DNA of 64,000 bases from an uncultured Lentisphaerota bacterium (GTDB lineage Bacteria; Verrucomicrobiota; Lentisphaeria; Victivallales; GWF2-50-93), in contig CAIQLG010000287.1 in NCBI GenBank assembly GCA_903872565.1, forward strand, positions 4,936-68,935, given 5' to 3'. Under the pieces are notes generated by a model. That model did no database searches. It was not told where the DNA came from and was given only the letters and a program-made list of their open reading frames with translations. Position 1 is the first letter of the stretch. Each line of letters opens with the position of its first letter. This document shows positions 10,677 through 60,438 of this stretch, in pieces. Position numbers and translations under genes: made by a program.

Positions 10677-12065
10677 CTATTTCAGCAGGTACATGTTTGC
10701 GATTGAAATTCCACTAAGCATTGCGCCGGTTATCCCTAGGAAGCCCTGATCGGTTCCGCACAGATAAAGACCTTCCGTGTGTGTTCGGCCATTCTTGAAT
10801 TTCAACGGCGAACCATAAACCGCTCCATTGATATGCCCGGTAAACCTTCTAACAGTTTCCGGAGTAAAAATGTCTGAAAATACCAGTCTTTGCCTGAGAT
10901 CAGTTCTTCCGCAGAGTTCTCCGCATTTTTTCAGCAGGATTTCGGAAAGCTCCGCTTTTTTCCCGCGATATGTCTTTTTGTCGTATTTTCTCCAGGAATT
11001 GTGATTCGCGAGAACTGTGAGCCTAAGCATCCTCTCGTTTTTTCTCTCATCGTATCTGAAATTGAACGGACAGCAGAAAACACCGCTCCTGAGACTGTAA
11101 GCGGTGTCCGGCGCACAATAATCAAAATTGTCCGTTTCGTTGAAGAATTTTATCGAATAATCAATTCCTTCAAGATTTGTGCCGGGGTCGATGCAGAAAA
11201 TCGCCTCGATGAATGAAAGCTGGCCCTCAGGCAATTCCGCGAAATTCGCAGGTTTCTCATCGCAGATGTGCATCGTCTCCAGGCTTCCCGCGGATGAAAG
11301 CACATTTGAAGTCTCGAGCATTTCTCCGCCGGAAGTGATGGCAGCCACCGTTTTCCCGCCAGAATTCATAATTCTGCGAATTTCGCAGTTGTACCTAAGT
11401 TCGCCGCCGGATTCCTTGAAACGGTCCTCGAGAAGAGTTATCAGCTGTCTTATCCCCTTCTCTGGACGACAGAAACCTTCCCTGAAAATGCTCTTGTACA
11501 TGATTGCGAACTGCGCAAAATCCATGTCCTTCTCGACTGCACTTCCATAATACATCAGCGGGCAGAAAAGCATTTCGACGAGAAGTTCGTTTTTGATGAA
11601 TCCGGACACGGTTTTTCTGGCGGATACATAAGGGGCGTTGACATCCAGTTCGTTGTAGGACATTATGTGTGAGTCGAGCCTGAGAAAGTTGTCAATCTCG
11701 GAGGGGAACTTGTCCGAGATCGAAGTTTTCAGCATATCGAAGTCGTTTGAGAAGGAGAGGGAAGCGGAGGAAAATTGTATGATGGAATAGTTCTGTTCTC
11801 TCAGGCAGAGTTCATCGTAGGGAATTCTCAGCTGTCTGAGAAGTTTCATCAGCGGCGAGTTCTTTGCACCGCCACGCGGGATAAAGTTGGTCATGGCATG
11901 AAGGCCGGTGTCAATTTCGATTCCATTCCTGTTGTAATACGAGTTGAGACCGCCTCCTCTGCCATGCTTTTCAGCAATGCAGACTTTCTTCCCGAAATGT
12001 GCGAGCCGTATCCCGGCGGCAAGCCCCGACATTCCGGCTCCGACTATGATGCAGTCATATTTCAT
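10677..12065 (-). CDS. FAD/NAD(P)-dependent oxidoreductase, phytoene-desaturase-like
   Basis: N-terminal YDCIIVGAGMSGLAAGIRLA dinucleotide-binding fold, 462 aa. Confidence 0.8.
   Translation of the reverse strand: MKYDCIIVGAGMSGLAAGIRLAHFGKKVCIAEKHGRGGGLNSYYNRNGIEIDTGLHAMTNFIPRGGAKNSPLMKLLRQLRIPYDELCLREQNYSIIQFSSASLSFSNDFDMLKTSISDKFPSEIDNFLRLDSHIMSYNELDVNAPYVSARKTVSGFIKNELLVEMLFCPLMYYGSAVEKDMDFAQFAIMYKSIFREGFCRPEKGIRQLITLLEDRFKESGGELRYNCEIRRIMNSGGKTVAAITSGGEMLETSNVLSSAGSLETMHICDEKPANFAELPEGQLSFIEAIFCIDPGTNLEGIDYSIKFFNETDNFDYCAPDTAYSLRSGVFCCPFNFRYDERKNERMLRLTVLANHNSWRKYDKKTYRGKKAELSEILLKKCGELCGRTDLRQRLVFSDIFTPETVRRFTGHINGAVYGSPLKFKNGRTHTEGLYLCGTDQGFLGITGAMLSGISIANMYLLK
11237..11251. repeat. 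15-bp palindrome family CTGCGAAWTTCGCAG, one mismatch (CCGCGAAATTCGCAG)
   Basis: Read directly. Lies inside the oxidoreductase ORF. Confidence 0.8.
11374..11388. repeat. 15-bp palindrome CTGCGAATTTCGCAG, perfect
   Basis: Read directly. Lies inside the oxidoreductase ORF, 137 bp from the previous copy. Confidence 0.9.
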
Positions 12066-12291
12066 TTATTTACTTTGCCCAAGAGTAATGAAAATATCCG
12101 AATCGAAAAAAGTTGCTTTTAATGCTATTATCCACTTAATAAGTAATACATTGTTTATTTGTAAAATCAAAATTATTTACATTTTTGCCTCGGCATCAGG
12201 CACAATCAGATTCTTTTTTTTAAATTTTAAATTTGTTTTATTTTTTATAGGCAATATATTACCCATCCGAGAAATCAAAATTATTTCTTGT

Positions 12292-12366
12292 TCCGGCGTA
12301 GCTCAGTGGTAGAGTAGGTGGCTGTTAACCACTTGGTCGTAGGTTCGAATCCTACCGCCGGAGCCA
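12292..12366 (+). tRNA. tRNA-Asn (anticodon GTT), CCA encoded
   Basis: Acceptor TCCGGCG/CGCCGGA, D-arm GCTCAGTGGTAGAGT, anticodon loop CTGTTAA, T-arm GTAGGTTCGAATCCTAC, then GCCA. Confidence 0.9.
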
Positions 12367-12375
12367 TTTTTATTA

Positions 12376-12663
12376 ATGACCTATTATCTTTATATTCTAG
12401 AAAATCCAGATGGTCGCACATATGTCGGGCAGAGCAACGATCTTGATCGCAGGCTGATTCAACACAACAATCCCGAATATAGTGGAACACTCTACACGAA
12501 GCGCATCAAAGGACCTTGGAGACTAATTTATTCGGAAGAACATGCGAGCCGGTCGGACTCCATGGCGCGTGAAAAATATTTCAAGACCGGCAAGGGCCGA
12601 GCAATGATTGCTGAAATACAAAACAAGATTTGCGCCGGGAGTTCCAATTTAGGTGGCTGTTAA
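12376..12663 (+). CDS. Small GIY-YIG nuclease-superfamily protein
   Basis: YYLYILENPDGRTYVGQSNDLDRRLIQHN contains the GIY...YVG motif plus conserved R and H/N. 95 aa. The stop codon lies in the anticodon-loop sequence of the partial tRNA copy. Confidence 0.85.
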   Translation: MTYYLYILENPDGRTYVGQSNDLDRRLIQHNNPEYSGTLYTKRIKGPWRLIYSEEHASRSDSMAREKYFKTGKGRAMIAEIQNKICAGSSNLGGC

Positions 12664-12700
12664 TTCGCCTTGGCGAATTCGAATCCTACCGCCGGAGCCA
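12650..12700 (+). pseudogene. Partial duplicate of tRNA-Asn (anticodon arm to 3-prime end)
   Basis: AGGTGGCTGTTAA and TTCGAATCCTACCGCCGGAGCCATTTT are identical to 12315-12328 and 12344-12370. The middle is replaced by the palindrome AATTCGCC-TT-GGCGAATT. Confidence 0.75.
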
Positions 12701-12956
12701 TTTTGTCTGACACGAATTCCCACGAATTTTAATCGCTGAATATCCCCGGGCAAAGAATTTCCGTTTCTCCAAAATATTCATTGCCACTGTAAAAGATGAC
12801 GGCCAGGAATGACCGTCCTACTAAATTGCATAAAATCTTATTCCTCTCTAAGAGTAAATTCGTAAATCGATACATAACCACCAATTCATTAAAATTTAGT
12901 TGTAACGACCTTAATTTAGTCTATATTATGGTCATGATATAAGGGGAAATAATATT

Positions 12957-13250
12957 ATGAAACTGCACGATAAGGTAAAATCAATCAGCTATGTGAAGTC
13001 TCACGCCTCTGAAATACTGAACAAGATAAGCGATACCCATTCCACCTATGTGATAACCCAGAATGGTGAAGCAAAGGCGGTGATACAGGACATAGAAGAA
13101 TATGACAAGCTTCAGGAATCGCTTGCCATGCTTAAACTGATAGCCCAGGGTGCCAATGATATTGAACATGGCAGAATCAGACCGCTCAAAGAGTCATTCT
13201 CAAGTATTCGCAGGAAAATATCCGACAGGAAGTCCGCATGGAAAAAATGA
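12957..13250 (+). CDS. Phd/YefM-family antitoxin
   Basis: SYVKSHASEILNKISDTHSTYVITQNGEAKAVIQDIEEYDKL is a typical Phd/YefM fold sequence. ATGA overlap with the next ORF. Confidence 0.8.
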   Translation: MKLHDKVKSISYVKSHASEILNKISDTHSTYVITQNGEAKAVIQDIEEYDKLQESLAMLKLIAQGANDIEHGRIRPLKESFSSIRRKISDRKSAWKK

Positions 13251-13579
13251 GATATGAGATATTTGTCTCCGAAGAGGCAGAGAAGGATATTATAGATATT
13301 TGGTCGCACATAGCCTTGAACGATTGTCTCGAAAACGCTGACTACGTTCTCAATGGCATTGAAAAAGTAATTTCATCTCTCGAGACGATGCCACGGAGAG
13401 GGCATCTTCCGCCGGAACTTGAGAGGATATCAGTCTTCAACTACCTCGAAGTCCATTACAAGCCATACCGCATCATCTACCAGATTTGCGGTACTTCTAT
13501 TAATATTTACTGCGTAATGGACGGCAGAAGGGATGTCCAGAGTGTGTTGTGCAGGAGACTTCTGAAAATAGAATATTAA
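13247..13579 (+). CDS. ParE/RelE-family toxin
   Basis: About 110 aa. The EAEKDI...IW..I N-terminus and the YRIIY...I.I..V.DGRRD C-terminus are typical of ParE. I prefer the start at the ATGA overlap at 13247; the track start is 13238. Confidence 0.75.
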   Translation: MRYEIFVSEEAEKDIIDIWSHIALNDCLENADYVLNGIEKVISSLETMPRRGHLPPELERISVFNYLEVHYKPYRIIYQICGTSINIYCVMDGRRDVQSVLCRRLLKIEY

Positions 13580-13799
13580 ATATGCCAATATTTAGCTTAA
13601 ATCCAAAATAATATGCCATTATTTCCGTTTTAAATGCTATAATTATTAATTTCTACATCATAAATATCTGTAATTCAACTACTTCACTCAACCCGGGGTG
13701 ATATGTGGGCATTTGGAATTAACGCATTTTATGCTATAGCCTATTTTTTCTTTAAACTCTTTCCATAAAGTTTATAACTAAAACAAACCAAATCAGAGT

Positions 13800-20338: not shown

Positions 20339-20522
20339 AAAACCCGCATCTTCGCATTTCTATTTGATTAAAATAACAATCTAGCAAGCTTTTTCCTAAT
20401 TTCAGCCAAAGTTTTGATTTTTATTCAAATAAACAATGATTGTGTGCGGCTTGAAACTTCATTGTACTGGTTTTCTTTTACGATTTCAGGAAAAAATTAT
20501 ACATGTTCAATAAGGAAAGCAA

Positions 20523-20699
20523 ATGTTTGACGAAAGACTGAAGAAGAAGATCGAGAAAAGGAAGATCGTTGCGGTAATAGTCATAGAATCTGCGGAGAAT
20601 GCTGTCCCCACAGCGAAGGCACTGATGGATGGAGGAATAGACATCATCGAGCTTGCGTTCAGGACTCCGGATCGCAAGATATCCCGAGGTCGCCGATAA
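20523..20699 (+). pseudogene. eda: 5-prime fragment of a KDPG/KHG aldolase gene (about 48 native codons, then out-of-frame tail)
   Basis: MFDERLKKKIEKRKIVAVIVIESAENAVPTAKALMDGGIDIIELAFRTP matches the Eda N-terminus. It then reads DRKISRGRR-stop. AAGGA RBS is present. Confidence 0.6.
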
Positions 20700-21078
20700 A
20701 ATGGCGAAGCAGTTCCCGAATCTCGAAAAGGTCGCCTGTACCCTGAGAGAAAGCATTTCCGCCAGCCACAACAACTGGGGAGCCATGCTCTACGACACCA
20801 AAACTAAAACTGCGAATTTCGCACCTATGGACGGTGGAAAATATGCCCCATACGAAATCAGAAACATTGTTGACAGAGTCGGTGGTGGCGACGCCTTTGC
20901 CGCAGGCCTGATTTTTGCAATGAACGATCCGGCACTAAAAAATCCTGAAAAGACAATTGCGTTTGCGACTGCCGCCTCCTGCCTGGCTCATTCGATAAGG
21001 GGAGACTTCAACTTCATATCGAGAAGCGAGGCCGAGGCACTTATGAAAGGCAGCACCTCTGGAAGAGTGGTCAGATAA
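20653..21078 (+). pseudogene. kdgK: 3-prime fragment of a PfkB-family 2-dehydro-3-deoxygluconokinase gene
   Basis: PEVADKMAKQFPNLEKVACTLRES ... NIVDRVGGGDAFAAGLIF (PfkB DxxGxGD). Only the C-terminal part (about 135 residues) is present, in a different frame from the eda fragment. Confidence 0.65.
20810..20824. repeat. 15-bp palindrome family, one mismatch (CTGCGAATTTCGCAC)
   Basis: Read directly. Lies inside the kdgK remnant. Confidence 0.8.
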
Positions 21079-23670: not shown

Positions 23671-25449
23671 ATGGCCGTAAATCTTACGATAAACAGAGTT
23701 CCAGTGACTGTTCCCGAAGGAACGACAATTCTGGACGCCGCAAAAGAGGTTGGAATCAAAATTCCAACACTATGCCATCTCGAAGGGGTCGGAAGCCCAG
23801 GTTCCTGCCGCGTATGCCTTGTCGAAGTCCAGGGAGCAAGGACGCTTCAGCCTTCCTGCGTTACAAAAGTCGGACAGGGAATGGTTGTGTGTACAAACTC
23901 CAAAATTGCAAGAGAGGCTAGACAGCTTTCGGTTGAACTTCTTCTCGCGAACCATCCGTGGGACTGCAATGCGTGCGTCAGAAACAACAAATGTGAACTT
24001 CAAACACTTGCCTCTGAGATGGGCATAACCGAAGTCCGCTTTCCCTACACCAAGGAGCAATTGCCAATTGACGACAGCACTCCTGCCCTCATCAGGGACA
24101 ACAACAAATGCATCCTCTGCCGCCGTTGCGTCTCTGTCTGCCAGGATGTACAGGGCGTGGGCTCTCTTGCTCCGCGTCTCCGCGGCTTTGACACAATCAT
24201 AGGAACAGGCGCAGGCGAAAAACTTTCCGATGCGGTATGCGTGCAGTGCGGACAGTGCTCCACTGTATGCCCTGTCGGCGCAATCTATGAGAAAGATGCC
24301 ATCGAGGATGTTTGGAAGGCTCTCGACGATCCGACCAAGCACGTTGTTGTCCAGACTGCTCCCGCAATCAGGGCCGCCCTGGGAGAATGTTTCGGACTTA
24401 AACCGGGGACATGCGTAACCGGGAAAATGGTCACGGCGCTAAGAAGAATGGGCTTCGACAAGGTTTTCGACACTAACTTCACCGCCGATCTCACGATCAT
24501 CGAGGAAGGACACGAACTTCTCACCAGGCTTAAAGACGCCCTCGTCGATAAGAAGGAAGTAGCGCTTCCCATGTTTACAAGCTGTTCCCCGGGGTGGATC
24601 AACTTCATGGAATATTTCTATCCGGAAATCATCCCGAACATATCAACATGCAAATCGCCCCAGCAGATGTTCGGCGCCCTCGCAAAAACATATTATGCCC
24701 AGAAAGAGGGCATTGATCCAAAAAATATAGTTGTGGTCTCCGTGATGCCATGCACAGCCAAAAAATTCGAGTGCTCAAGAGATGAAATGAACTCCTCCGG
24801 GTTCAAGGACGTTGACTTTGTCCTGACGACAAGGGAACTCGGCAGAATGATCACCGAAGCCGGCCTTGACTTCCTTAACCTGCCCGACGGCGAACAGGAC
24901 TCCCCGATGGGAATGTCAACTGGTGCAGCCGACATCTTTGCCAACACCGGCGGGGTCATGGAAGCCGCGATCAGGACAGTCTATGAAGTGGTTACCGGCC
25001 GTCAACTTCCGATGGACGGACTCCATATCAAGCCGATCCAGGGACTCAAGGGGCTCAAGGAGGTTTCACTTACATTTACGGATTGTGTGCCAGACTGGAA
25101 GTTCCTCGAAGGCGTAACTGCGAAAGTCGCAGTCGCTCACGGGCTTTCGAATGCTCGCAAGATCTGCGACATCGTGGCCGCCGGCAACAAACCCGGCTAT
25201 CATTTCATCGAAGTGATGTGCTGCCCCGGCGGATGTATCGGCGGCGGTGGACAACCTCTCTTCACGACGGACGAAGTCAGGAAGGCCAGGATCAAGGCCA
25301 TCTACAAGGAAGATGAACATAGGCCAATGCGCAAATCGCATGAAAATCCGGCTATCACACAGATATACAAGGAATTCCTTGGCAAGCCGCTTGGACACAA
25401 GTCCCACGAGCTTCTGCATACTCATTATCACAAGAAAGAAAAGAAGTAA
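23671..25449 (+). CDS. hydA: [FeFe]-hydrogenase catalytic subunit (M3-type: 2Fe-2S, His-ligated 4Fe-4S, two ferredoxin clusters, H-domain)
   Basis: N-terminal cluster motifs CRVCLVEV, HPWDCNACVRNNKCELQ, CILCRRCVSVC and CVQCGQCSTVCP. H-cluster L2 is MPCTAKKFE and L3 is EVMCCPGGCIGGGGQP. L1 reads FTSCSPGW, which deviates from the consensus. Confidence 0.9.
   Translation: MAVNLTINRVPVTVPEGTTILDAAKEVGIKIPTLCHLEGVGSPGSCRVCLVEVQGARTLQPSCVTKVGQGMVVCTNSKIAREARQLSVELLLANHPWDCNACVRNNKCELQTLASEMGITEVRFPYTKEQLPIDDSTPALIRDNNKCILCRRCVSVCQDVQGVGSLAPRLRGFDTIIGTGAGEKLSDAVCVQCGQCSTVCPVGAIYEKDAIEDVWKALDDPTKHVVVQTAPAIRAALGECFGLKPGTCVTGKMVTALRRMGFDKVFDTNFTADLTIIEEGHELLTRLKDALVDKKEVALPMFTSCSPGWINFMEYFYPEIIPNISTCKSPQQMFGALAKTYYAQKEGIDPKNIVVVSVMPCTAKKFECSRDEMNSSGFKDVDFVLTTRELGRMITEAGLDFLNLPDGEQDSPMGMSTGAADIFANTGGVMEAAIRTVYEVVTGRQLPMDGLHIKPIQGLKGLKEVSLTFTDCVPDWKFLEGVTAKVAVAHGLSNARKICDIVAAGNKPGYHFIEVMCCPGGCIGGGGQPLFTTDEVRKARIKAIYKEDEHRPMRKSHENPAITQIYKEFLGKPLGHKSHELLHTHYHKKEKK
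25118..25132. repeat. 15-bp palindrome family, one mismatch (CTGCGAAAGTCGCAG)
   Basis: Read directly. Lies inside hydA. Confidence 0.7.
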
Positions 25450-30994: not shown

Positions 30995-31732
30995 ATGAGA
31001 AAAATGCAAAAAGATTCTGTTAAACTATTTGTCCTTAACATCGGCAACACGAACACCGGATATGGAGTCTGGACAGACGGTGTTTTTTCAGGCATCGCCA
31101 AAATCCCCACATCACGGATAGGAGAACTCGAAATCCCCTCCGGAATTCCTTTGGCGGGATCATCCGTTGTCCCGGAAGCCTCAAAAAAACTATCCGGCAG
31201 AAATATTTTCTGGCTGAACCCCGAAATGAACAGCGGAATAGATTTCTCCGGTGCCGACATCTCGAACATGGGTGCGGACAGGCTTGCTAACCTTGTCGCA
31301 GCTGCGAATTTCGCAGAACCGCCGCCTTTGATCGTTGCGGATTTCGGAACCGCAATCACCATTGATTTTTTAGACAGGGGGTGGATATTCATGGGAGGGG
31401 TTATTCTGCCCGGAAGAACAATGGCAAGAAAAGCCCTCACTCAGCAGACGGCTAAAATTCCGACTGTTCCTCTTCTTGAAAACATCGAACCGTTCGGAAA
31501 AAACACTGAAGAAGCCGTTTCTTTCGGAACCGACATCATGATAACGGGAGGAGTAAAGGAAATAATTGGCAGAATGATTGACAAAGTCGGATATGGCAAA
31601 GCAGATGTCCGCATTATAGGCGTCGGCGGAGACGCGGAGTTCTTCCTAAGTCAGATTCCGGAATTGACTTTTGGTGGAGATGAGTTTACATTAGCCGGAA
31701 TTGCAAAAGCTTGGGAGATTAGTCGTCTATGA
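30995..31732 (+). CDS. coaX: Type III pantothenate kinase
   Basis: LNIGNTNTGYGVW, VADFGTAITIDF, GGVILPG. Confidence 0.85.
   Translation: MRKMQKDSVKLFVLNIGNTNTGYGVWTDGVFSGIAKIPTSRIGELEIPSGIPLAGSSVVPEASKKLSGRNIFWLNPEMNSGIDFSGADISNMGADRLANLVAAANFAEPPPLIVADFGTAITIDFLDRGWIFMGGVILPGRTMARKALTQQTAKIPTVPLLENIEPFGKNTEEAVSFGTDIMITGGVKEIIGRMIDKVGYGKADVRIIGVGGDAEFFLSQIPELTFGGDEFTLAGIAKAWEISRL
31302..31316. repeat. 15-bp palindrome CTGCGAATTTCGCAG, perfect
   Basis: Read directly. Lies inside coaX. Confidence 0.9.
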
Positions 31733-36155: not shown

Positions 36156-37241
36156 TTATTCCTTTCCTTCTTCTGTTGGATATTCCGTGTCTGCCCCTCG
36201 GCCTGTCCCTCGAAGCCATAAAGGCAAAGCGGGAAGCTCAAAGAGCGAAGTGGGGTTCTGTATTGGACATTCATTCAAGAAAACCTGGAATTCCCCGCTT
36301 ATCTCCGTCTCCAAAATTTTTATTCCGCTGATTTTCCCGTCTTCCACAATCATTTCTAATATAATTCCTTTCATGGCTTCAGGATTCCAGTCCTGATCGA
36401 AAAGAAAATTCCCGAGCCCATAAGCTATGAATCCATCCTTGTATCTTTCCGTTGGCTGGATTTGATGGCTGTGATGACCAATCACGAGCGAAGCTCCCGC
36501 ATCTATGAATTTTCTCGCAATCATTTCTTGTCTTTCATCCTGGATTTTGCTGTATTCTCTGCCGAAATGCAGGTTAACTATTACTATTTCTCCGTTTTGC
36601 ACGGCATTTCTCAGCAATTTTGACGCTCTTTCATCCTCGCAGTCGGCGACAAGTGAGTTTTTCCTTTCGATTCCCCATTTGTCATATCCGATGTCGTTGA
36701 ATGCGAAAATCGCAAATTTACAGCTATTTTTTGTAAATATGACAGGATTGAAAGCCTTTTCAGGCTCCATTGCGGCCCCTGTATGCTGAATACCCGTTTT
36801 ATCAAGATCTTTCAAAGTGTCTTGAAGGCCTTTTCCCCCATAGTCGAGAATATGATTGTTCGCAATCCCTAGCGCGTTGAACCCGGCATATTCGAGTCCC
36901 AAAACGGATTCCGGCGGAAGCTTTAACCATATTTTCTTGTCCTTGCCTGATGTTTTGTCCTCGTTTTTCGTCAAAGCACCCTCGAGGTTCCCAAAAACAA
37001 AATCACAGGATTTGAAATAATTCCTGACCTTCAGGAATGGCCAGTTCCAGTCATTCTTGGTGCGACAGATCTCCTCAACTTTTCTTCCCGTCATTATGTC
37101 GCCGGTGAATACGAGTTTGACCCTTCCGGATTCCGCAGAATTTTTCTCGGGCACCGCACAGCCGGAAAAAAGCGGAACGAGAAGAAAAATCAAGAGGTAT
37201 TTTTCCCAGCCGCCTGAAATAATATTTTTTTTCTTGTTCAT
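36156..37241 (-). CDS. CapA-family (poly-gamma-glutamate capsule synthesis-like metallophosphatase) lipoprotein
   Basis: LVPLFSGC lipobox, FTGDIMTGR, IANNHILDYG, IGHHSH. I prefer the ATG at 37241. Confidence 0.75.
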   Translation of the reverse strand: MNKKKNIISGGWEKYLLIFLLVPLFSGCAVPEKNSAESGRVKLVFTGDIMTGRKVEEICRTKNDWNWPFLKVRNYFKSCDFVFGNLEGALTKNEDKTSGKDKKIWLKLPPESVLGLEYAGFNALGIANNHILDYGGKGLQDTLKDLDKTGIQHTGAAMEPEKAFNPVIFTKNSCKFAIFAFNDIGYDKWGIERKNSLVADCEDERASKLLRNAVQNGEIVIVNLHFGREYSKIQDERQEMIARKFIDAGASLVIGHHSHQIQPTERYKDGFIAYGLGNFLFDQDWNPEAMKGIILEMIVEDGKISGIKILETEISGEFQVFLNECPIQNPTSLFELPALPLWLRGTGRGADTEYPTEEGKE

Positions 37242-38715: not shown

Positions 38716-41700
38716 ATGAAGCTGAAAAATGTAAAAAAATACATTGAGGGGACTTTTTCCGATGATGAACGGAAGAAGGCCGGACAACTCCTGAAGATGA
38801 GTCCGGTTGTATATTGCTTTTTAGACGTGGACGGTACAATTTTCGGGGCTCTGCGAAATTCGCAGAACGAGAAAGACAACAAGATTGTCCGTCTGAAAAT
38901 ATTGGAGACCGGAACCGGCGAACCGGCTCCCGAATGCGAATTGTGCGGTGCTGGCAGATGTTTTCATTCTGCTGTTCTTCTTCTTCACTGCGAGAGGCAC
39001 GAGAATCTTTTTTCCGAGAAGGTTGAAAAGAAAGAGGTAATCAGCTATTCAGGTCTTCCAGCGGTGTCGTTGAAAACTTTCTCGAAGCAGGCGGAGGAGG
39101 AAGGTGCCGGCACTCGGCTGGAGGTATATTTTCCGTCCGGCCTTCCCCATTTGCCCACGAGATGGGACAACTGTGTTTTTGGAGTGCGACTTTTTTCGAC
39201 TGCCAGGGAATATATGGGAAACTTGGGCAACCTCAGGCAGTTGCATTTCAAGGAGACGATAGGTGCAAAACTGCGAATTTCGCAGTTTTCCCTCCAGGAA
39301 AGACAGATAATCCGCTATCTTGCGCTGAACTCGGAGGCGGAAGGGAATCTTCTCTGTGTAAATTCTGAAAACATGGCGGAGTTTTTCCATTCTCTGTCAG
39401 GTTTTGAAGGAATCTTCTCTGGCGACAAGACAGTGCATATAAACCGGGCTCCTGCGGAACCATCGGTTGCCTATTTTGTAAAATCTGGCAAGACAATGTT
39501 TCGTCCGGCGATATTCGAGGGCGACAGGGCGGTTGTGGCGAAGAACTTCCACATCATCATGGGCAAGTCCGGCTGTTGGATAGGCACAAATGGGGATTAC
39601 TGGTGGATTCCCGGAACTATAGATGTGTCCATTTTGCGGGCTTTTTTCCGCATTGAAGAAACGGTTCTGGGCTCGGAAGAAGCTGAAAAACTGCTTTCCC
39701 AATTCCCGGAAAAATTCTTCAGATCGCTTCATATGGAAGACAAAAATCTGAGGAAAAGGCATTTTTCGCCGATTTATCAAATCAAATCAGGGATGGACTT
39801 GGGGCACATATTGGAGCTGAACCTTCTTTTCGACTACGACAGCCTTCTTCTGCCGCCGGGAATGGAAAATATTTTCCATGGAAAGGGCAGATCATTCAGG
39901 CGTGACAAGGAAAGGGAGACTTCATTGGTGGAGGAACTTCTGCTTTTCGGATTCATCCGCAAGAGCAACGAAAAAAATGAGTTTTTCCTTGATAATGTCG
40001 AGGCGGCCGGTGTATTTGTCAGCAGGCTTGTCCCCATCTGGATAAAAGCTGGCGCTAAAGTTTACTTCGAGGCTGATTGCGGAATGGGTGTTCCCGGAAT
40101 GAAAATAAGCCTTGAAAAGGTGGATTCCAACTGGGAAACTGTCAAATTCAGGTACGATATAGCTGCGGGCGACCAGGAACTTGACTGGGGGCGGCTCGTA
40201 AAGATATGCAAAGAACCGGGCGACTACACCAGGCTTGAAAAAGGTGGAATAACACATATTGGTGGCAAGTTAAGGGAATTTGTCATGGCGGTCTGGGACA
40301 TCACCCGGAAGGACGCAGACTCCGATGTTATTGCCATTCCTATGGCGTGCGAGACTTTCTGGAATGCGAAGGCGGCTGATGCCGGGATAAACCTGAAGGG
40401 ATTGGACAGTCACCACGTTCCATCCATCAAAGATTCCGGAGACAAGATCCCTCCCCTGATTTTTTTTAAGGGTGAGCTGAGGAAATACCAGTTGGAAGGC
40501 TTGGAATGGATGCGGCTGATGATCTCAAGAAAACTGAATTTCATTCTTGCCGATGAGATGGGGCTGGGAAAAACTGTGCAGGCTCTTGCTCTTATGGCAT
40601 CTTTGAAAGAGACTTCACCCGGGCGGAAGCCTTTTATTGTGCTTTGCCCAAGCACTCTTGTAGAAAACTGGCAGATGGAAGCGGAAAGATTTGTTCCGGA
40701 ACTCGGCGTGGCTGTCGTTAAAGGTGCTTTGCGCGGAAAGGAAATGTGGGACAAAGCCTCTCTTTCCGACATAATAATATGCAGTTATTCGATTCTGAAA
40801 CGGGATATAGAACATTGCCGCGGCATCTCGTTCCGCTGCGTTTTTCTCGACGAGGCCCAGCACATAAAGAATCCATCTACGGAAAATGCGAAATCCTGCA
40901 AACAGCTGAAATCGGGAAGCAGAATAGTTCTTACTGGTACACCTCTTGAAAATTCGCCGTCCGAGCTGTGGTCAATCTTCGATTTCCTTCATCCTGGCAT
41001 TCTGGGTTCGCTGGGGAATTTCAAGGCAAGATATTGTGCAGATGGGGCAGGTGCGGAGACACACCGGGAATTGGCTTCAAGAGTTGGTCCATTTATTCTG
41101 AGGAGAAAAAAGGCGGAGGTCACGCCAGAACTGCCAGAAAAGACAGAACAGCTTGTTTTCTGTGATTTCGAAGAGGATCAGAAGGCTGTTTACGATCAAA
41201 TTCTTGAGTGCGGCAGAAATGAATATGAGAAGATGACGGGATCACATGCCGCAAACAGGATCAATGTGCTGAGCTGGCTTCTCAGGCTCAGACAGCTCTG
41301 CTGTCATCCTGATCTTCTCCCCGCCAATCTCAGGCCGCCCGGCATCAGTTCCGCAAAGACGGAACTTTTCAAGGAGCTTCTGCTTGAGAGTTTCGACAGT
41401 GGCCACAGGGTACTTCTCTTCAGTCAGTTCACAAGCCTGCTCAAGATAATAAGGGAATGGCTCGACTCGGAATCTGTAAAATATGAATATCTCGATGGAA
41501 AGACCCAGGATAGAATGCAGAGGGTAGTCAATTTCAACAGAGACAGAAGCATCCCCGTTTTTCTCCTGAGCCTGAAAGCAGGTGGAACCGGGCTGAACCT
41601 GGCATCTGCAGACAGAGTCATAATATATGATCCCTGGTGGAACCCTGCGGTTGAGGATCAGGCTTCCGACCGGGCACACCGGATCGGACAGATCCGGAAT

Positions 41701-44697: not shown

Positions 44698-45348
44698 TTA
44701 ATGAATATTTGCTAGTCCGTGGTATTCGCAAAGATTGTTTATCCATTCTGAAAACGAATGCCAGTACTCGGTACCCAGATCTGGAATTCCATCGCCCTTG
44801 CAAAGAAAATTCACCATCATCCCGGTAAAACGTATCCTTTTAAGTCCGTCAGGATTCTTTTCGGCCTCTTCCATCGAATGTCCTGGAAGAAGCCCGTGCT
44901 CGTAGAGATACACCAATTTAAGCAGGTCGAAAACTGGAGGATTTTCCGGAAGAGGACCGCAGAGGATCTTTAGAACACCCCTCAGGGACGAATAAAGAAT
45001 CGGGGAAGGCAGCATGGTGTGCGAATTTCGCAGAACAAATTCCGCAATTTCGGCCGCCAGAATGAAGTTCCCGGTCCGTAGAGAAATAGCATCGGATGTG
45101 CCGACAATCTCGACGGAATTGATGGTGTAGAGTCCCTTCGCACCTTCCTTGAAATGCACATTCAACTCCCGGAAGAGGTCAACTTCGGGAAACCGTTTCT
45201 TTTCCACACGCATCGCTCCTCTGGCAAGAAAGTCAAGACGCCCGTAGTCCGCACTCACCGACGCAATCACTAGACTGCTTTCGCTGAAAGGCGTCTTCCG
45301 AAGAACAATTATGTTAGTGTCAATCATAAGATCATCTATAACAAACAT
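44698..45348 (-). CDS. recO: DNA repair protein RecO
   Basis: NIIVLRKTPFSESSLVIASVSADYGRLDFLARGA OB-fold N-terminus. I prefer the ATG at 45348. Confidence 0.75.
   Translation of the reverse strand: MFVIDDLMIDTNIIVLRKTPFSESSLVIASVSADYGRLDFLARGAMRVEKKRFPEVDLFRELNVHFKEGAKGLYTINSVEIVGTSDAISLRTGNFILAAEIAEFVLRNSHTMLPSPILYSSLRGVLKILCGPLPENPPVFDLLKLVYLYEHGLLPGHSMEEAEKNPDGLKRIRFTGMMVNFLCKGDGIPDLGTEYWHSFSEWINNLCEYHGLANIH
45019..45033. repeat. 15-bp palindrome family, one mismatch (GTGCGAATTTCGCAG)
   Basis: Read directly. Lies inside recO. Confidence 0.8.
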
Positions 45349-46407: not shown

Positions 46408-49365
46408 TTATCTCAGCAGTCTTTCGACAATCTGAATCATCTTTTCCTTCCCTACCAGAGGGAAGAGAAACTTGTAAAGCTCTGCCTTGAGTTGACGCAG
46501 TTCTTCCGGATTGTCCTTGGAATTCGGAAATCTCTCAACCATACTTTTTACTATGGCTGCATTTTTGGCGGGTTCTTCCATTTTTTCTGATTTCAGCTTC
46601 CAGAAAATTCCAAAAGTATCAGAGTCGAGACCAGACAACTCCCGCTCCTTCCGCGCGGCCAGCATTTCCTTCACAATATCCTCTATTCTCTTCAATGCGC
46701 TCTCCGTGGAAATCTGCCTGTCGTCGAATGCCTCTATTATAGCCTCCGCACGGTCGCCGATTTCGTGGAGATACGGCGCATTGTCTCCTTCATCGGTCAC
46801 TTTTTTCCTTATGCCGATCACAAGGTTGATTATCTTTCCTTTGTCCGATTTTCCGGAAATTCTTATCGCATCAAGAGTCTTATCGTCAATTACTACTGCA
46901 GGAAGAGCATTTTCCAGACCGAACACCGAGATATTTTCGCGGATAAGATGTTCCGTCTTTCCAGCTACATCGCCATACAGGACGGTTTTTCTGCTGAACG
47001 CATTTCCTATTATCTGGAACATTGCGGAAAGTTTTGCGAAATCATCCATATGATCCCTTAGATCGGGAGATGGAGACAATATGTCGTATATCGTTTCCAA
47101 TTGTTTGTAAAGCCTGAAGAAATCCTCTCTCTCGCTCTTGTCAGAGAACAATTCGACAATTTTTTCCACTGTCTTGTCATCCAGACTACCATCACAGAGT
47201 ACCAGATATTTTTTCGCATCCTTTGCCATCAGGTCGTGAAATCTTGCAAGAAGGATATCTATCCCCTCGATCGCTCCGCCAACCACATCAGAGTCGAATG
47301 CCAGTGCTTTCTCAAGCTTCTCGAAGATTCCTACAAAATCCACTACGAGGCCGCATGGCTTCCGTTTTTTCTCATTTATTTCATAAGGTCTGTTAACCCT
47401 TGCAATCGCCTGAAGCAGAACGTGATCGCGCATCGGCTTATCAAGATACATGCAGTAGAGAATCGGAGCGTCGAAACCAGTCAGAAGCTTGTCAGTCACA
47501 ATGAATATCTTTGGCAAAGTGTCCGGTTTCAAAAACTGCTTGCGGACCATCTTTTCTGCTTCCGCGCCAACCTGGTGTTTATAAACAAAGGGAAATCTCT
47601 CACCGTCGTGCTGGGCCGAACTGTATATCGGCATAGAATATTCCGGAGGCAAAAGCTTGTCCAGTTCCTCCTTGTAGAGGGCACAGGCTTCGCGATCCAC
47701 ACCGACTAGAAAGGCCTTGTATCCCATCGGCTCGACATTTTCCCGGTAGTGTTTTGCAACAAACTTTGCGACCTTCGCAATTCGGTCCTTAGATTTAAGA
47801 AAATTCTTCAATTTCAGTGCATGGTCCAGAATTTTGTTTAACACATCAATATCGCAAATGCCTTCTGCCTCCGCAAGCGACAGGAATTCCTTCTCGAGTT
47901 GTTCCCGCGGCACTCTGATCTCGTTCGGTGCGAGAGCATACTTCAGAGGTAGAGTAGTTCCGTCGTCTATTGATTCGCTTATTGAATATTTGTCGAGATA
48001 ACCCTTGTCGTCCTCTCTTCCAAAAATCTTGAATGTCCCCTTCCCATATGCGGTCTTGTCTATCGGCGTTCCGGTGAAGCCTATCATCGTGGCACTTGGA
48101 AGAGCGGCAACCAGATAGTTACCGAGATCGCCCCCTATACTCCTGTGCGCCTCGTCTATAAGAACGAAGATATTGTCCCGCTTGTTAACATCTTTTGAAA
48201 TTCCATCGAACTTGTGTATCATCGAGACAACAAGGCCTCTGAAATCCGATTCTAGAAGGCTTCTGAGTTTTTTCTTGCTGTTTGCTGACTCGATCTTAAT
48301 GTCGTGCGCCTGCATCTCGCCAAGAAGCCTTCCGACCCATCCGGAAAGCTGTCCCTCGAGTTCATTTCTGTCAATCATAAGTATCACTGTTGGTTTGCCG
48401 AACAGATCCTTCTCACGGAGAATTAGGCGTGCCGCAGTAATCATAGTGAAAGTTTTACCCGACCCCTGAGTGTGCCATATCAGACCTGTCTTCCTTGCCT
48501 CGTCGGAACAACGTTCGAGAATCTTGTCCACAGCTCTCGTCTGATGCTGTCGCAGGACAGTCTTACGTAGTTCATCATCCTTGTAATAAAACAAAATCCA
48601 TTCCCGCAGCATCATCAGGAAACGTCCACGGTCAAAGAAACTTTTCACCTTCGACTCGAAAGAATCGAAGTTCTGGGAGATGCCGTTCTCGCCTCTCCCC
48701 GTCCCCCTCTGGAGAGGGGCTCCAACCCGTTCATCATTTGCCGATTTCCAACTGAAAACATTCTTGCAGTCGAGGTTCCAGGTCACTCCATACATGAAAT
48801 CAATCAGATGTGTTATGTTGAAAACCTGTGCGCTTGTAACCATTTCCGGTGTTTCCCTGTGATATTCGCGAATCTGGACTAGCGCCTTCTCGATTCCGTC
48901 CGGTTTTTTTGCATTTTTTGACTCTACTATGGCAACTGGAATTCCATTGATCAGAAAAATAATATCAGAGCGGTTGGTCTCTCGTCCATTGGTGAACTGC
49001 CACTCTTCGGTGACTTGAAAAATATTGTTTTTGATTTTTTCATAGTCAATGAGAGCCACATTGCGTTCACGTTTTTCCTTGTGGTCATAAATGCTTTTTT
49101 CGCCGCGAAGCCAGGAAAGGATCGAGGCATTGCCCTCGATGGTATTCCGCTCTGACTCTATCCTTCGTATCACATCATTTACATTTTCGCCAGTGATCAG
49201 GCCGGGGTTGAATTTCTTAAGCTTGTCAGCAAGAATGTCCGAAAAAAGCATCCCGGACTCTCCACCGCGGAGCGACAACGCTTCCGAGGTGGAAATATAT
49301 TCCCACCCCGCATCAACCGCATATTTTATCAGCGGTTTCTGAACTGTGTTTTTTTCCGTAAACAT
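46408..49365 (-). CDS. hsdR: Type I restriction enzyme R subunit
   Basis: WHTQGSGKTFTMI (motif I), LIDEAHRS (DEAH), C-terminal helicase and assembly regions. I prefer the ATG at 49365 with a GAGGA RBS; the track start is TTG at 49386. Confidence 0.9.
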   Translation of the reverse strand: MFTEKNTVQKPLIKYAVDAGWEYISTSEALSLRGGESGMLFSDILADKLKKFNPGLITGENVNDVIRRIESERNTIEGNASILSWLRGEKSIYDHKEKRERNVALIDYEKIKNNIFQVTEEWQFTNGRETNRSDIIFLINGIPVAIVESKNAKKPDGIEKALVQIREYHRETPEMVTSAQVFNITHLIDFMYGVTWNLDCKNVFSWKSANDERVGAPLQRGTGRGENGISQNFDSFESKVKSFFDRGRFLMMLREWILFYYKDDELRKTVLRQHQTRAVDKILERCSDEARKTGLIWHTQGSGKTFTMITAARLILREKDLFGKPTVILMIDRNELEGQLSGWVGRLLGEMQAHDIKIESANSKKKLRSLLESDFRGLVVSMIHKFDGISKDVNKRDNIFVLIDEAHRSIGGDLGNYLVAALPSATMIGFTGTPIDKTAYGKGTFKIFGREDDKGYLDKYSISESIDDGTTLPLKYALAPNEIRVPREQLEKEFLSLAEAEGICDIDVLNKILDHALKLKNFLKSKDRIAKVAKFVAKHYRENVEPMGYKAFLVGVDREACALYKEELDKLLPPEYSMPIYSSAQHDGERFPFVYKHQVGAEAEKMVRKQFLKPDTLPKIFIVTDKLLTGFDAPILYCMYLDKPMRDHVLLQAIARVNRPYEINEKKRKPCGLVVDFVGIFEKLEKALAFDSDVVGGAIEGIDILLARFHDLMAKDAKKYLVLCDGSLDDKTVEKIVELFSDKSEREDFFRLYKQLETIYDILSPSPDLRDHMDDFAKLSAMFQIIGNAFSRKTVLYGDVAGKTEHLIRENISVFGLENALPAVVIDDKTLDAIRISGKSDKGKIINLVIGIRKKVTDEGDNAPYLHEIGDRAEAIIEAFDDRQISTESALKRIEDIVKEMLAARKERELSGLDSDTFGIFWKLKSEKMEEPAKNAAIVKSMVERFPNSKDNPEELRQLKAELYKFLFPLVGKEKMIQIVERLLR

Positions 49366-58113: not shown

Positions 58114-59125
58114 CCGTTTTTTTCACTGAAGTATTGGGGTTCCCCGCAAAGGAAAGATACAATATGAGACCGGTGAGTTCGAGACATCCGAATGCGATCT
58201 TCACTCCGTATGGGATTACAGGCCAGTGATACTGCGAAAAAAATGACTCGATGATGCCCGCCCATACAAGAAGCAACGCACAACCACACAGCAAGGTCGT
58301 CATATCCGACGCATATACGCGGAGGCTCTGGAATTTTCCCATTCCGACCGGAAGGAGAACTATTCTTCCGAGTATGATTCCAGCCTGCCCGGCAATAAGT
58401 ATGGCGGGAATTTCTATAACCCCGTGTGGTAGCAGCCAGCCAAGGAGAAAATATGTTTGCCCCGCCAGTATATAGTCAATCGCCACCGCTCCGAGAATAA
58501 TTCCATTGTAGAAAAGCATCAAAATTGAACCTAGCCCGAAAACTATTCCGAAAGCGAATGCGTTGATTGAAACCTTTATGTTGTTGCTTATAAGATATGA
58601 TGCGAAAGAGGCCTGTCGCCCCTCGACCCGGGGCTTGTCCCGGGTTTCCTCCTGCCTGACCCTTTCTTCCGGCGATATGTTCAAATGTGCAAACTGTTGC
58701 GGGAATATGGCCTCCCTCGAGGTTCCATCGGAATAGATTGTGACTCCGCCGAAGACAACTCCTACCAGTGTCGCCGCTAGAGATACATAAAAAGCCCCTA
58801 TGTTTTTTCTGAAAGTCCTGGGAAACACGTTGACTATCCAGTTTTTAAATCCGAAATTTTTTATTCTGCCCTTTCTGGAATGCACGCAGGAATACGCCCT
58901 CGATGTGAGACTCTCTAGATACCGGCGTACTTCGCGTTCCCCTGAAAGAGTAGTTATCTTCACAAGATCGTCTGAAACTCTTCCATATAGATAATGCAGT
59001 CTTTTTATCGAATCCGGAGTGAAAAAAGCGGCTTCATGGGTTCTCTCGATGTCGTCGAGCATTTTCTCTAGCTCCTTCCAGAAAACTTCCTCTTCCCTGA
59101 TGAATTTTGCAGTGTCAATTATCAT
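58088..59125 (-). CDS. SpoIIM-like (DUF95) integral membrane protein
   Basis: Soluble N-terminal helical region, then multiple TM segments with GIVFGLGSILMLFYNGIILG. Overlaps both neighbours. Confidence 0.6.
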   Translation of the reverse strand: MIIDTAKFIREEEVFWKELEKMLDDIERTHEAAFFTPDSIKRLHYLYGRVSDDLVKITTLSGEREVRRYLESLTSRAYSCVHSRKGRIKNFGFKNWIVNVFPRTFRKNIGAFYVSLAATLVGVVFGGVTIYSDGTSREAIFPQQFAHLNISPEERVRQEETRDKPRVEGRQASFASYLISNNIKVSINAFAFGIVFGLGSILMLFYNGIILGAVAIDYILAGQTYFLLGWLLPHGVIEIPAILIAGQAGIILGRIVLLPVGMGKFQSLRVYASDMTTLLCGCALLLVWAGIIESFFSQYHWPVIPYGVKIAFGCLELTGLILYLSFAGNPNTSVKKTDGAINAKQ

Positions 59126-60438
59126 ATGAGCTGTTTTTCCTTGATTTCGAGGTATTTGGAAACAAGCCCCGAGGCGAAGTCCCGAGGCGGATGGCTTGTG
59201 AATGAAACTCCCTGCTTTACTAAAGATCGTTTAAGAGTCTCAAGTTCCATCCAGTTCAAGTGCCCTGCGAATTTCGCATATATGTCTGAGGCGGAGCTGA
59301 TGGAATTTCCCTCGAAAAGCGGGACATCCATTTTGTTCTTCACTGAGATGACCGAGCACAGGTGGTGATTTTTCAGGAGTTTTATTCCGGAGCTGAAAGA
59401 TTCCGCCAGTACCGGATCATCGAGATCGGTGAAAAAGAATATCAGCGCCCTTTTCCGCAGGCGTTCCTTGATCTGTGTGAAGAGGTTCCCATAGTCTGGT
59501 GTTCTGTACCCGGCATTTATTGACAATGCGGCTTCGCGACAGGAATTGTAATGGTTTTCCCCCGATTTTGCCTTGAGAAAATGCCTCATGGAGCTGTCGA
59601 ACGAGACAAGCCCGAAAAGATCGCCGTTCTTTTCGGTCACAAGGCATAGGATCAGGGCCGCCGCCAAATATGTCTCAATCACGGCGGTTCCGTCAATTTT
59701 CCTGCTGCTCATTCTTCCTGCATCTATGACAACATAAATTTCCTGAACACGCTCGGTGCGGAACACCTTGGAAATTGGTTTGCCGCGTTTCGCAGTGGAC
59801 TTCCAGGAAATGTTGCTGAAACTGTCGCCGGGCATATATTCCCTGAGCCTGTCGAATTCCCTTCCCTGCCCGACTATTCTGTTGAGATGTATCCCGGAAA
59901 ATTCCCTGCTCAGGAACACGGGTGCGAGCTGCCTGATTAGCGGGCGCAAGTTCGGATATGCGCGAACTTCGCAGTCGAGGGGAATTTTTCTTCTCACCCT
60001 CCACAGTCCGACTGGAGAGTCGGACTCGATTACCGCAGAGGGAATCCTGTAGATTCCCCGCTCAAGCGCTTCGCACTCCCATTCCGCCCTAAGAAAAGTA
60101 TTGTCCTCGGATAAAATTATTGGTCTGAAGCTCTGTGAGGTATAAAGATTGTCAGGAAAGTCAGGGCTGACCACAAGCTCGGCTCCGATTTTCCCGGAAC
60201 AATTGATGCCAAGCTCCAACTTGGATTTTCTCAGGACTGAAATTCGGAAAACATTATTGGAGGACATAGTTATTTTCCTGAGATTTTTCAGGCCTGCCAC
60301 CGCGTCAAAAACAGATACCAGCAGAATTGTGAGGGCAAAGACAAATCCTATGACTGCCAGACCGTCAATATAGACGGCCGCCGCCGAAAACGGCATCATA
60401 AGTGCAACCCAGAAAATAATTTTACGCGGAATAATCAT
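59122..60438 (-). CDS. DUF58-domain protein (vWA-like partner of MoxR)
   Basis: LREYMPGDSFSNISWKSTAKRGKPISKVF and two N-terminal TM segments. Confidence 0.8.
   Translation of the reverse strand: MIIPRKIIFWVALMMPFSAAAVYIDGLAVIGFVFALTILLVSVFDAVAGLKNLRKITMSSNNVFRISVLRKSKLELGINCSGKIGAELVVSPDFPDNLYTSQSFRPIILSEDNTFLRAEWECEALERGIYRIPSAVIESDSPVGLWRVRRKIPLDCEVRAYPNLRPLIRQLAPVFLSREFSGIHLNRIVGQGREFDRLREYMPGDSFSNISWKSTAKRGKPISKVFRTERVQEIYVVIDAGRMSSRKIDGTAVIETYLAAALILCLVTEKNGDLFGLVSFDSSMRHFLKAKSGENHYNSCREAALSINAGYRTPDYGNLFTQIKERLRKRALIFFFTDLDDPVLAESFSSGIKLLKNHHLCSVISVKNKMDVPLFEGNSISSASDIYAKFAGHLNWMELETLKRSLVKQGVSFTSHPPRDFASGLVSKYLEIKEKQLI
59265..59279. repeat. 15-bp palindrome family, one mismatch (CTGCGAATTTCGCAT)
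   Basis: Read directly. Lies inside the DUF58 gene. Confidence 0.8.

Follow-up and report, generated by a model that had tools for sequence, protein, structure and literature searches.

A palindromic word is iterated across unrelated genes

The DNA analyzed here, referred to as the window, is a stretch of 64,000 nucleotides from an uncultured Lentisphaerota bacterium (assembly GCA_903872565.1, contig CAIQLG010000287.1, positions 4,936 to 68,935 of the forward strand). Its genes include those for a FAD/amine-oxidase-type oxidoreductase, the [FeFe] hydrogenase HydA, the type III pantothenate kinase CoaX, a SWIM/SNF2 helicase, RecO and a DUF58 protein, and three putatively accessory blocks lie among them: a GC-rich glycosidase block, a defence island and a type I restriction-modification (R-M) island. 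A palindromic word, TGCGAA-N-TTCGCA, is iterated across the unrelated genes of the window and of some other Lentisphaerota; in both, its hosts are unrelated housekeeping genes.

An earlier note, made from the letters of the window by eye, had listed nine copies of a 15-bp palindrome, and all nine were reproduced in position and sequence. An exact search returned four perfect copies of the 15-mer CTGCGAAWTTCGCAG and five copies with one mismatch, while two-mismatch copies of the 15-mer numbered zero. Three weaker relatives, which had been placed at 36702, 47766 and 59960, proved to be one-mismatch copies of a 13-bp core, TGCGAANTTCGCA. The genes named as hosts agree with Pfam (FAD/amine-oxidase-type oxidoreductase, PfkB remnant, HydA, CoaX, SNF2 helicase, RecO and DUF58). 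In total, 13 copies of the core (≤1 mismatch) lie in the window, every one of them within an open reading frame (ORF) (Table 1).

The unit is palindromic, as proposed, but its full 15-bp length did not hold up: because the outermost positions are merely Y and R, it is better given as YTGCGAA-W-TTCGCAR, with a 13-bp core. In relatives, TTGCGAA...TTCGCAA is frequent, and variation at one outer position is independent of that at the other. In a symmetrised count matrix built from 45 copies in DNA that had not been selected for the motif, GCG/CGC hardly varies, conservation is ~94% at T1/A13 and ~87% at the inner AA/TT, and the center is A or T in 80% of copies, while the Y/R flanks are weakly conserved. 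Single mismatches pile up at half-site positions 6, 5 and 1. When the flanks of copies were compared, no conservation was seen outside the 15-mer.

Copies exceed composition- and codon-aware expectation

Dinucleotide-preserving shuffles of the window (n = 100) yielded a mean of 0.00 perfect 15-mers and 0.17 copies with at most two mismatches (maximum 2). The coding sequences of the window were then compared with two codon-aware nulls. They contain 7, 6 and 4 core copies at zero, one and two mismatches, whereas synonymous-codon shuffling within each gene, which retains proteins and codon usage, predicts 0.13, 1.0 and 4.4, and permutation of codon order predicts 0.01, 0.23 and 2.9. For copies with at most one core mismatch, the 13 observed thus compare to 1.1 under the synonymous shuffle and 0.24 under the codon permutation. 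The excess is real at zero and one mismatch, and two-mismatch copies are at background level. Seven loci of relatives behave in the same way, with 9 and 23 copies observed at zero and one mismatch against 0.27 and 1.95 from the synonymous shuffle. Codon choice in the window and its relatives is therefore bent towards the motif. The frequency of the motif in unrelated genes of some Lentisphaerota is ~100-fold above codon-aware chance, and the dinucleotide shuffles, synonymous shuffles and codon permutations together rule out chance, composition or a codon artefact as its source.

The peptides that host the motif are enriched as well. All four A[KN]FA tetrapeptides of the window are spelled GCG-AAW-TTC-GC[A/G], the usage of each of these codons being 24-60%, and the tetrapeptide does not occur in 31,069 codons from motif-poor relatives. 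A shared peptide had been dismissed as an explanation in the earlier note, and rightly so: the hosts are unrelated, the copies occupy three reading frames and A[KN]FA is written with a fixed choice of codons, which also disposes of paralogy. The same note had staked its proposal of DNA-level selection for a dyad-symmetric site on a codon-aware null, and this null came out in favor of the motif; codon choice at A[KN]FA, conservation at synonymous positions and recurrence in non-syntenic DNA (see below) support the proposal further. We are highly confident that the word is a real, lineage-specific iterated palindrome that is maintained at the DNA level.

The motif recurs in some Lentisphaerota lineages

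The CarA protein of the window is 68-78% identical to proteins named Lentisphaerae, Victivallaceae, Victivallales, Lentisphaeria or Lentisphaerota, and the window encodes a DUF1559/N-methyl prepilin typical of bacteria of the Planctomycetes-Verrucomicrobia-Chlamydiae group. The same species (98.4-100% nucleotide identity) has been assembled in several ENA, Logan and JGI metagenomes; motif copies are invariant among these assemblies, which are too close to inform on polymorphism. Beyond the species, the exact 15-mer was found in at least 115 stretches of a species-representative genome collection. About 23 of those listed are Lentisphaerota, with titles naming Victivallis, Victivallales, Lentisphaera or Lentisphaeria (the taxonomy of metagenome-assembled genomes, or MAGs, is that of their record titles). 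With the seed match excluded, these ~23 listed stretches have another 42 copies of the core (≤1 mismatch) over 146 kb, as compared to 3 in 669 kb for the 90 listed stretches of other taxa. One contig titled as a Syntrophus aciditrophicus MAG (L173; DYLD01000119.1) bears three perfect and five weaker copies in 7.6 kb, all within one 2067-residue ORF. It shares a cave sample with a motif-rich Lentisphaera MAG and may be a mis-binned Lentisphaerota contig.

Two further sets of loci were retrieved without reference to the motif. The first was anchored on the SWIM/SNF2 gene, orthologues of which are widespread in gut and sediment metagenomes (56 loci). Four of these loci (L183-L186) contain 21 copies in 51 kb and a fifth (L212) contains 3 in 4 kb, while ~50 others (640 kb, GC content 36-65%) contain a single copy. 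The second set was anchored on CarA, with ~21 kb for each locus (18-21 kb) and copies counted at ≤1 mismatch. Here, three loci are motif-rich: L241, from the same MAG as the seed locus L068, with five copies; L244, a JGI contig, with seven; and L240 (GCA_964636325.1), with three. Zero copies were counted in L238, from the complete genome of Lentisphaerota bacterium ZTH (CP119760), in L239, on an 8.6-Mb contig, and in each of three other relatives (L242, L243 and L245). Universal presence in Lentisphaerota is thus ruled out by ~50 SNF2-anchored and five CarA-anchored loci that are essentially without copies.

Across 161 kb of unselected DNA from motif-rich lineages, there are 45 copies (≤1 mismatch), or 2.8 per 10 kb against ~0.02 expected, with densities of 1.4-4 per 10 kb in the individual loci. 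The gene neighborhoods of L240, L241 and L244 are unlike that of the window, and the density is therefore not a property of one syntenic region. Recurrence in non-syntenic DNA retrieved blind to the motif also answers a concern raised with the original proposal, that copies might be confined to the window by local paralogy. The proposal had called the word genome-wide: recurrence in the sampled loci is in keeping with this, and the whole-genome extent is an extrapolation from those loci. We conclude that the motif characterizes some lineages of Lentisphaerota (Victivallales-like). In a single-gene CarA tree, the window groups with the L241/L244 lineage and L240 is placed elsewhere, so that the distribution of the motif is either patchy or not resolved by this tree.

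Candidates from other sources were also considered. In motif-poor relatives, no recurrent 10-12-mer that could represent an alternative dialect was seen at the sampling depth used. One sequence, TCCGGAAATCA, occurs five times in both orientations within 700 bp of a human-gut Lentisphaerota-like contig (L204:2546-3260, L205:2547-3261) and was rejected as a genome-wide word, being a local inverted-repeat cluster. Among viral contigs, the 15-mer has 58 matches, near the chance number apart from two homologous contig families in IMG/VR (L010, L012, L015, L034, L052 and L056; L011, L023, L036, L037, L044, L050, L057 and L058). In these families, which account for 14 of the 58 matches, the exact 15-mer lies 47-115 nt from the contig end in a conserved hairpin-rich region resembling a viral untranslated terminus, with a related second copy at a distance of 62 nt in one family. 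Both families are unrelated to the organism of the window, and a viral link was discarded.

Copies lie within genes, favor one reading frame and avoid putatively acquired DNA

Placement was examined for 113 copies (≤2 mismatches) from 14 sources. At a coding density of ~90%, 109 of the 113 lie within ORFs, no preference for intergenic regions or promoters was seen among the 113, and positions along the gene are roughly uniform. All three reading frames are used, with the peptides described before, and in the larger data set their usage is very unequal, with a ratio of 82:17:10 for A-K/N-F-A (xT-GCG-AAW-TTC-GCA), C-E-I/F-R and L-R-N/I-S-Q, or 75% in the first. The preferred frame, Ala-Lys/Asn-Phe-Ala, is the least costly to the protein. 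Local clusters of copies occur in ordinary genes, namely those for a GHMP kinase, E and F proteins of type II secretion systems or type IV pili (T2SS/T4P), a methyltransferase, a UDP-GlcNAc 2-epimerase, lipoyl synthase, a Mur ligase and a surface repeat protein. Gaps shorter than 600 bp number 16 against 8.5 expected, a comparison confounded by motif-free islands and by orthologous sites that are counted repeatedly.

Copies are nearly absent from islands that were probably acquired recently. The three accessory blocks of the window had been described as free of good copies, and depletion is indeed observed (1 of 13 copies in ~20 kb, binomial p~0.05), with a single weak copy in hsdR. The defence island (12.4-19.5 kb) has zero copies. 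It is strain-variable: strain L002 lacks it and has ~680 bp instead, bearing a one-mismatch copy (L002:380). The type I R-M island has one core copy with one mismatch, that in hsdR, which may itself be fortuitous, given that chance predicts ~1 copy. The GC-rich glycosidase block also has zero copies, its continuation over 5.7 kb past the left end of the window (L247:14937-20670) included.

The individual copies are listed in Table 1 together with neighboring features. The defence island contains genes for a GIY-YIG protein, a PhdYeFM/ParE toxin-antitoxin pair, a C5 methylase with GmrSD and HEPN proteins, an Eco29kI-like endonuclease with a second C5 methylase, and a helix-turn-helix protein. 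The type I R-M system is split by a DUF1186/SEC-C gene and an NYN-domain gene, and the GC content of the glycosidase block is 51-56%, as compared to ~45% elsewhere. The region around the PfkB remnant resembles decayed sugar-acid genes: an aldolase fragment of 58 residues is annotated in near-identical contigs, and the PfkB fragment scores under the cut-off of Pfam. The copy in this remnant still has a perfect core and is identical in all seven other assemblies covering the site.

Table 1. Motif copies and neighboring features of the window.
Position	Feature	Gene or region	Encoded peptide or remark
288-3410	GC-rich block	Glycosidase block	GH95 glycosidase and two DUF4838 proteins, the part past the left end of the window included
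11237-11251	CCGCGAAATTCGCAG, one mismatch	FAD/amine-oxidase-type oxidoreductase gene, minus strand	P-A-N-F-A-E
11374-11388	CTGCGAATTTCGCAG, perfect	Same oxidoreductase gene	N-C-E-I-R-R
11505-11517	TGCGAACTGCGCA, one core mismatch	Same oxidoreductase gene, third copy	Missing from the earlier list
12292-12366	tRNA-Asn	Border of defence island	Island extends to 19550
20478-21078	Apparently decayed genes	Putative sugar-acid gene remnants	
20810-20824	CTGCGAATTTCGCAC, perfect core	PfkB-kinase remnant ORF	T-A-N-F-A
25118-25132	CTGCGAAAGTCGCAG, one mismatch	hydA ([FeFe] hydrogenase)	T-A-K-V-A; identical in eight other assemblies of the species
31302-31316	Perfect copy	coaX (type III pantothenate kinase)	A-A-N-F-A
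36702-36714	TGCGAAAATCGCA, one core mismatch	PGA_cap (CapA-like) gene	F-A-I-F-A
38716-41853	Gene	SWIM/SNF2 helicase	
38851-38865	Perfect copy	SWIM/SNF2 helicase gene	L-R-N-S-Q
39271-39285	Perfect copy	SWIM/SNF2 helicase gene	L-R-I-S-Q
45019-45033	GTGCGAATTTCGCAG, perfect core	recO, minus strand	L-R-N-S-H
46408-49386	Gene	HsdR, type I R-M island	
47767-47779	TGCGACCTTCGCA, one core mismatch	hsdR, type I R-M island	Only copy within a putative accessory block
49494-51044	Gene	DUF1186/SEC-C	
51151-52344	Gene	HsdS, type I R-M island	
53104-53757	Gene	NYN domain	
54004-55818	Gene	HsdM, type I R-M island	N-terminal helix-turn-helix
59265-59279	CTGCGAATTTCGCAT, perfect core	DUF58 gene, minus strand	Y-A-K-F-A
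59961-59973	CGCGAACTTCGCA, one core mismatch	DUF58 gene	C-E-V-R

Copies arise by point substitution and are conserved at synonymous positions

The SNF2 genes of L183-L186 (71-85% nucleotide identity) were aligned by codon, and four motif sites were found in register across them, with no indels. Third codon positions are invariant in all four sequences at 11 of 16 positions within the sites, as compared to 268 of 1027 outside. One site is unique to L185, where a TGAGAACTTCGGG-like sequence became TGCGAATTTCGCA; this gain changed P-E-N-F-G to P-A-N-F-A, that is, E to A and G to A. Between L241 and L244, which are 82.7% identical over 10.9 kb, three common sites are identical at 36 of 36 positions. 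At a greater distance, the perfect copy of the window at 11374 has the same 15-mer at the same N-C-E-I-R-R spot in the 47%-identical oxidoreductase of L149 (L149:598), where the residues flanking this peptide differ from those of the window.

The SNF2 helicase of the window, whose homologue is named SWIM zinc-finger containing by NCBI, has a long, fast-evolving N-terminal region with ~30-36% identity to its nearest homologues. The copy at 39271 has no indel against homologues and is therefore substitutional. The copy at 38851 lies within a 5-residue stretch that corresponds to a gap in two distant homologues, in a region that is barely alignable (~30% identity), and its status as an insertion is ambiguous. 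No SNF2 site of the window coincides with a site of L183-L186, indicating that positions turn over at this distance while density is kept.

These comparisons bear on the suggestion that the word is a very short mobile palindrome, which would insert 15 bp, or five codons, into genes. The gap opposite the 38851 copy is what such an element would leave, but it falls in the barely alignable region just described, and nine of ten orthologous comparisons are indel-free at the motif (four SNF2 sites, three sites shared by L241 and L244, the window copy at 39271, and the window copy at 11374 against L149). Moreover, one gain is directly visible as substitutions, in L185, and there are no conserved flanks or target duplications. 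On these grounds, insertion was rejected as the origin of the copies, and we consider a mobile palindrome extremely improbable. Instead, copies arise by point substitution, at times altering amino acids, and orthologous copies are held constant at synonymous positions. A force on the DNA sequence creates and preserves the word in native DNA, filtered by what the protein tolerates.

What may read the motif

The half-sites TGCGAA vary independently, and constraint is strongest on GCG...CGC, which points to a two-fold-symmetric reader, probably a homodimeric protein acting on duplex DNA. The same dyad could alternatively form a hairpin (6-bp stem, 3-nt loop) in single-stranded nucleic acid, either mRNA or DNA that is single-stranded during replication, uptake or conjugation, and a palindrome would yield the same RNA from either transcribed strand. 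Consistent with a hairpin, the 15-mer folds at -5.1 kcal/mol as DNA (z = -4.4), constraint is highest at the G/C positions of the stem and lowest at the central three bases, and 9 of 46 two-mismatch variants are perfect palindromes. However, ~4 palindromic double variants are expected when variation is concentrated at three half-site positions, and the excess, which includes orthologous duplicates, is not significant; selection for hairpin complementarity was accordingly set aside under this position-aware null. Variants are mostly single unpaired changes, some of them conserved across four species (for example, TGCGAAATCCGCA), and no covariation is seen between the flanking Y and R. Selection for structure should allow many stem sequences, whereas a single one is fixed. 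None of the copies overlaps an Rfam family, which excludes a known RNA family. Taking both sides, a hairpin is decidedly improbable.

The motif is a lineage-specific highly iterated palindrome of the same class as the cyanobacterial highly iterated palindrome 1 (HIP1) and the DNA uptake sequences (DUS) and uptake signal sequences (USS) of other bacteria. By analogy with these, the account that we tentatively favor, at somewhat less than even confidence, is that the word tags self-DNA: a dimeric protein would recognize it during uptake or recombination, and drive would account for part of its accumulation. DNA of the organism's own clade would be tagged by the word, which would be used in DNA uptake or in the recombinational processing of incoming DNA, and machinery biased towards motif-bearing DNA would lead the motif to accumulate by molecular drive. 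Molecular drive has been modelled for USS and was recently proposed for HIP1. The information content of the motif is ~19 bits from the ascertained matrix, or ~15 bits when the 16:29:14 ratio of copies with zero, one and two mismatches is modelled, as compared to ~11-12 bits needed for the observed frequency. Such an excess of information over need is a trait of DUS/USS, and molecular drive would produce it. Density and frame bias likewise resemble those of DUS/USS and HIP1 more than those of the sites bound by MatP (matS), SlmA (SBS), Noc (NBS) and ParB (parS).

Genes compatible with DNA uptake are present in the relevant lineages. A ComEC-type gene (DUF4131 plus Competence domain) lies adjacent to or near carA in two motif-rich relatives (L240:11177-13375 and L244:19911-21152). 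T2SS/type IV-pilus-type E and F genes, for the ATPase and the platform protein, occur in L093, and the window has the prepilin and a weak secretin match; these genes are widespread. In a more specific form, a subset of Lentisphaerota would possess a new self-DNA recognition system, in which a homodimer reads the 13-bp palindrome as a mark of the native chromosome, either in uptake and transformation or as a Chi-like signal meaning 'do not degrade / recombine here'. This we see as possible but rather doubtful.

Several points weigh against a self-DNA tag. The literature searched holds no report of natural transformation in Lentisphaerota, and genes for ComEC and pili occur so widely that they have little diagnostic value. 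The classical DUS and USS are non-palindromic, and their density is several-fold higher. We identified no HIP1-type methyltransferase that would recognize part of the word, the methylases of the window being located in strain-variable islands. A DNA-binding dimer of any function would suit a perfect palindrome whose half-sites are independent. Finally, the motif-selected stretches were each chosen for containing a copy, and the spread of the motif is extrapolated from sampled loci, so that its distribution could conceivably be regional, as in a macrodomain.

A serious alternative is that the copies are binding sites of an abundant dimeric nucleoid or chromosome-organisation protein, following the logic of MatP/matS, SlmA/SBS, Noc/NBS or ParB/parS, and are kept for folding, segregation or division-site control. 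The 6-1-6 palindrome is the architecture of matS, its half-sites vary independently, copies are mostly intragenic without promoter preference, and orthologous sites are conserved at synonymous positions, all as such sites would be. The motif is also lineage-restricted, as are MatP, SlmA and Noc. At approximately 44600, plus-strand genes (38.7-44.6 kb) meet minus-strand genes (44.7-64 kb) and GC skew passes from positive to negative; this convergence could be a replication terminus or merely a gene-strand effect. On the other hand, ~280 copies per Mb extrapolate to roughly a thousand sites per several-Mb genome, whereas known systems have tens, and density is the same in every unselected motif-rich locus whatever its neighborhood, which argues against one macrodomain. 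Site turnover between the SNF2 orthologues of the window and L183-L186 is complete while density is kept, the information in the motif exceeds the need for such a number of sites, and the word shows no resemblance by inspection to the consensus of parS, matS, SBS or NBS, a comparison made at the level of the sites and not by searching for the cognate proteins. Overall, we judge a role in chromosome organisation unlikely.

A different possibility is that no protein reads the whole word for a function in the cell and that it arises as a by-product of DNA methylation and repair. In this scheme, the ratchet proposed by Elhai for HIP1, a methyltransferase reads part of the word, and methylation-directed mismatch repair or very-short-patch-type (Vsr-type) repair turns near-matches into matches. 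HIPs are associated with methyltransferases (PMC4390886). The motif is palindromic like the sites of type II methyltransferases, proto-sites become copies through point substitution, copies with one mismatch are more numerous than perfect ones, and the gain and loss of an enzyme could account for its patchy phylogenetic distribution. Nevertheless, its 12 specified positions go far beyond the known specificities of methyltransferases or Vsr-type enzymes, and if a ratchet acted on a site of 4-6 bp, the flanking positions would be left unfixed. No cognate methyltransferase was identified, and both the C5 and the N6 methylases of the window lie in strain-variable or typical R-M islands. We therefore consider the ratchet quite improbable, and the self-DNA tag remains the account that we tentatively prefer.

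Significance of an iterated word in Lentisphaerota

The motif had been thought undescribed, and full-text literature searches for the sequence and related topics gave nothing relevant. Very few genome-wide words are known to be maintained at the DNA level (Chi, the FtsK-orienting polar sequences or KOPS, DUS/USS and HIP1), and each of these gave rise to a field of mechanistic research on recombination, segregation or transformation. The present finding adds an iterated word in a phylum with almost no genetics. Its long, exact palindromic consensus makes the reader protein directly fishable with the 15-mer, and its sharp presence or absence among related lineages is suited to phylogenetic profiling. 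As a compositional marker of native as opposed to acquired DNA, the motif can aid binning or flag mis-binned Lentisphaerota contigs in metagenomes. Should it be an uptake signal, it would offer a route to genetic tools for Lentisphaerota. If the word does belong to a self-DNA system, Proteobacteria would no longer be the only bacteria with a DUS-type signal (HIP1 may be a parallel in cyanobacteria), a signal in the form of a long perfect palindrome would be without precedent, and natural competence would be implied in a poorly cultured phylum of gut and sediment.

Comparison with known systems

Repetitive extragenic palindromes and bacterial interspersed mosaic elements (REP/BIME), Correia elements and other miniature palindromic repeats are, like the motif, short, palindromic and present in many copies. 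They are, however, intergenic, 20-150 bp long and spread by insertion or transposition, leaving empty sites for comparison and conserved ends, whereas the motif is intragenic, substitutional and without conserved flanks.

The sites of nucleoid and chromosome-organisation proteins, matS, SBS, NBS and parS, are likewise palindromes of 12-16 bp that are read by dimers, mostly intragenic and lineage-restricted, and matS has the same 6-1-6 layout as the motif. These systems differ from the motif in number and spread: they comprise 4 to ~75 regionally confined sites per genome, as compared to about a thousand for the motif (extrapolated), with similar density in every sampled neighborhood.

DUS in Neisseriaceae and USS in Pasteurellaceae resemble the motif in their evolutionary behavior. 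They too are clade-specific words (9-12 bp or longer) that lie within genes in frames giving tolerated peptides, are common to related species, dense in native DNA and depleted in foreign DNA, accumulate by point mutation, and carry more information than their frequency requires. Unlike the motif, DUS/USS are asymmetric and form inverted pairs in terminators; the motif is a palindrome, is several-fold less dense and has no terminator or intergenic enrichment, with 109 of 113 copies intragenic.

In its full set of properties, the motif most closely resembles HIP1. The sequence of HIP1 (GCGATCGC) is unrelated, and the host phylum here is Lentisphaerota rather than cyanobacteria, where HIP1 and its derivatives are found. 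The motif is also longer (13-15 bp compared to 8 bp), is an odd-length palindrome with a free central base, and has a ratio of observed to expected copies above 1000, as compared to 55-228 for HIP1. HIP1 has been linked to co-distributed, often orphan methyltransferases that read part of the word, whereas no cognate enzyme was identified for the motif. At ~100 (perfect core) to 280 (≤1 mismatch) copies per Mb, its density overlaps the low end of that of HIP1, 300-2700 per Mb (PMC4390886). HIP1 is a palindromic iterated word that is tied to transformation and, after three decades, is being linked to methylation-dependent enhancement of natural transformation (bioRxiv 10.64898/2026.06.24.733823). 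Both words are palindromic and over-represented, occur in coding and non-coding DNA and in all reading frames, spread by substitution rather than insertion, are conserved at orthologous sites above the neutral level, and are missing from some lineages of their clade and from acquired DNA.

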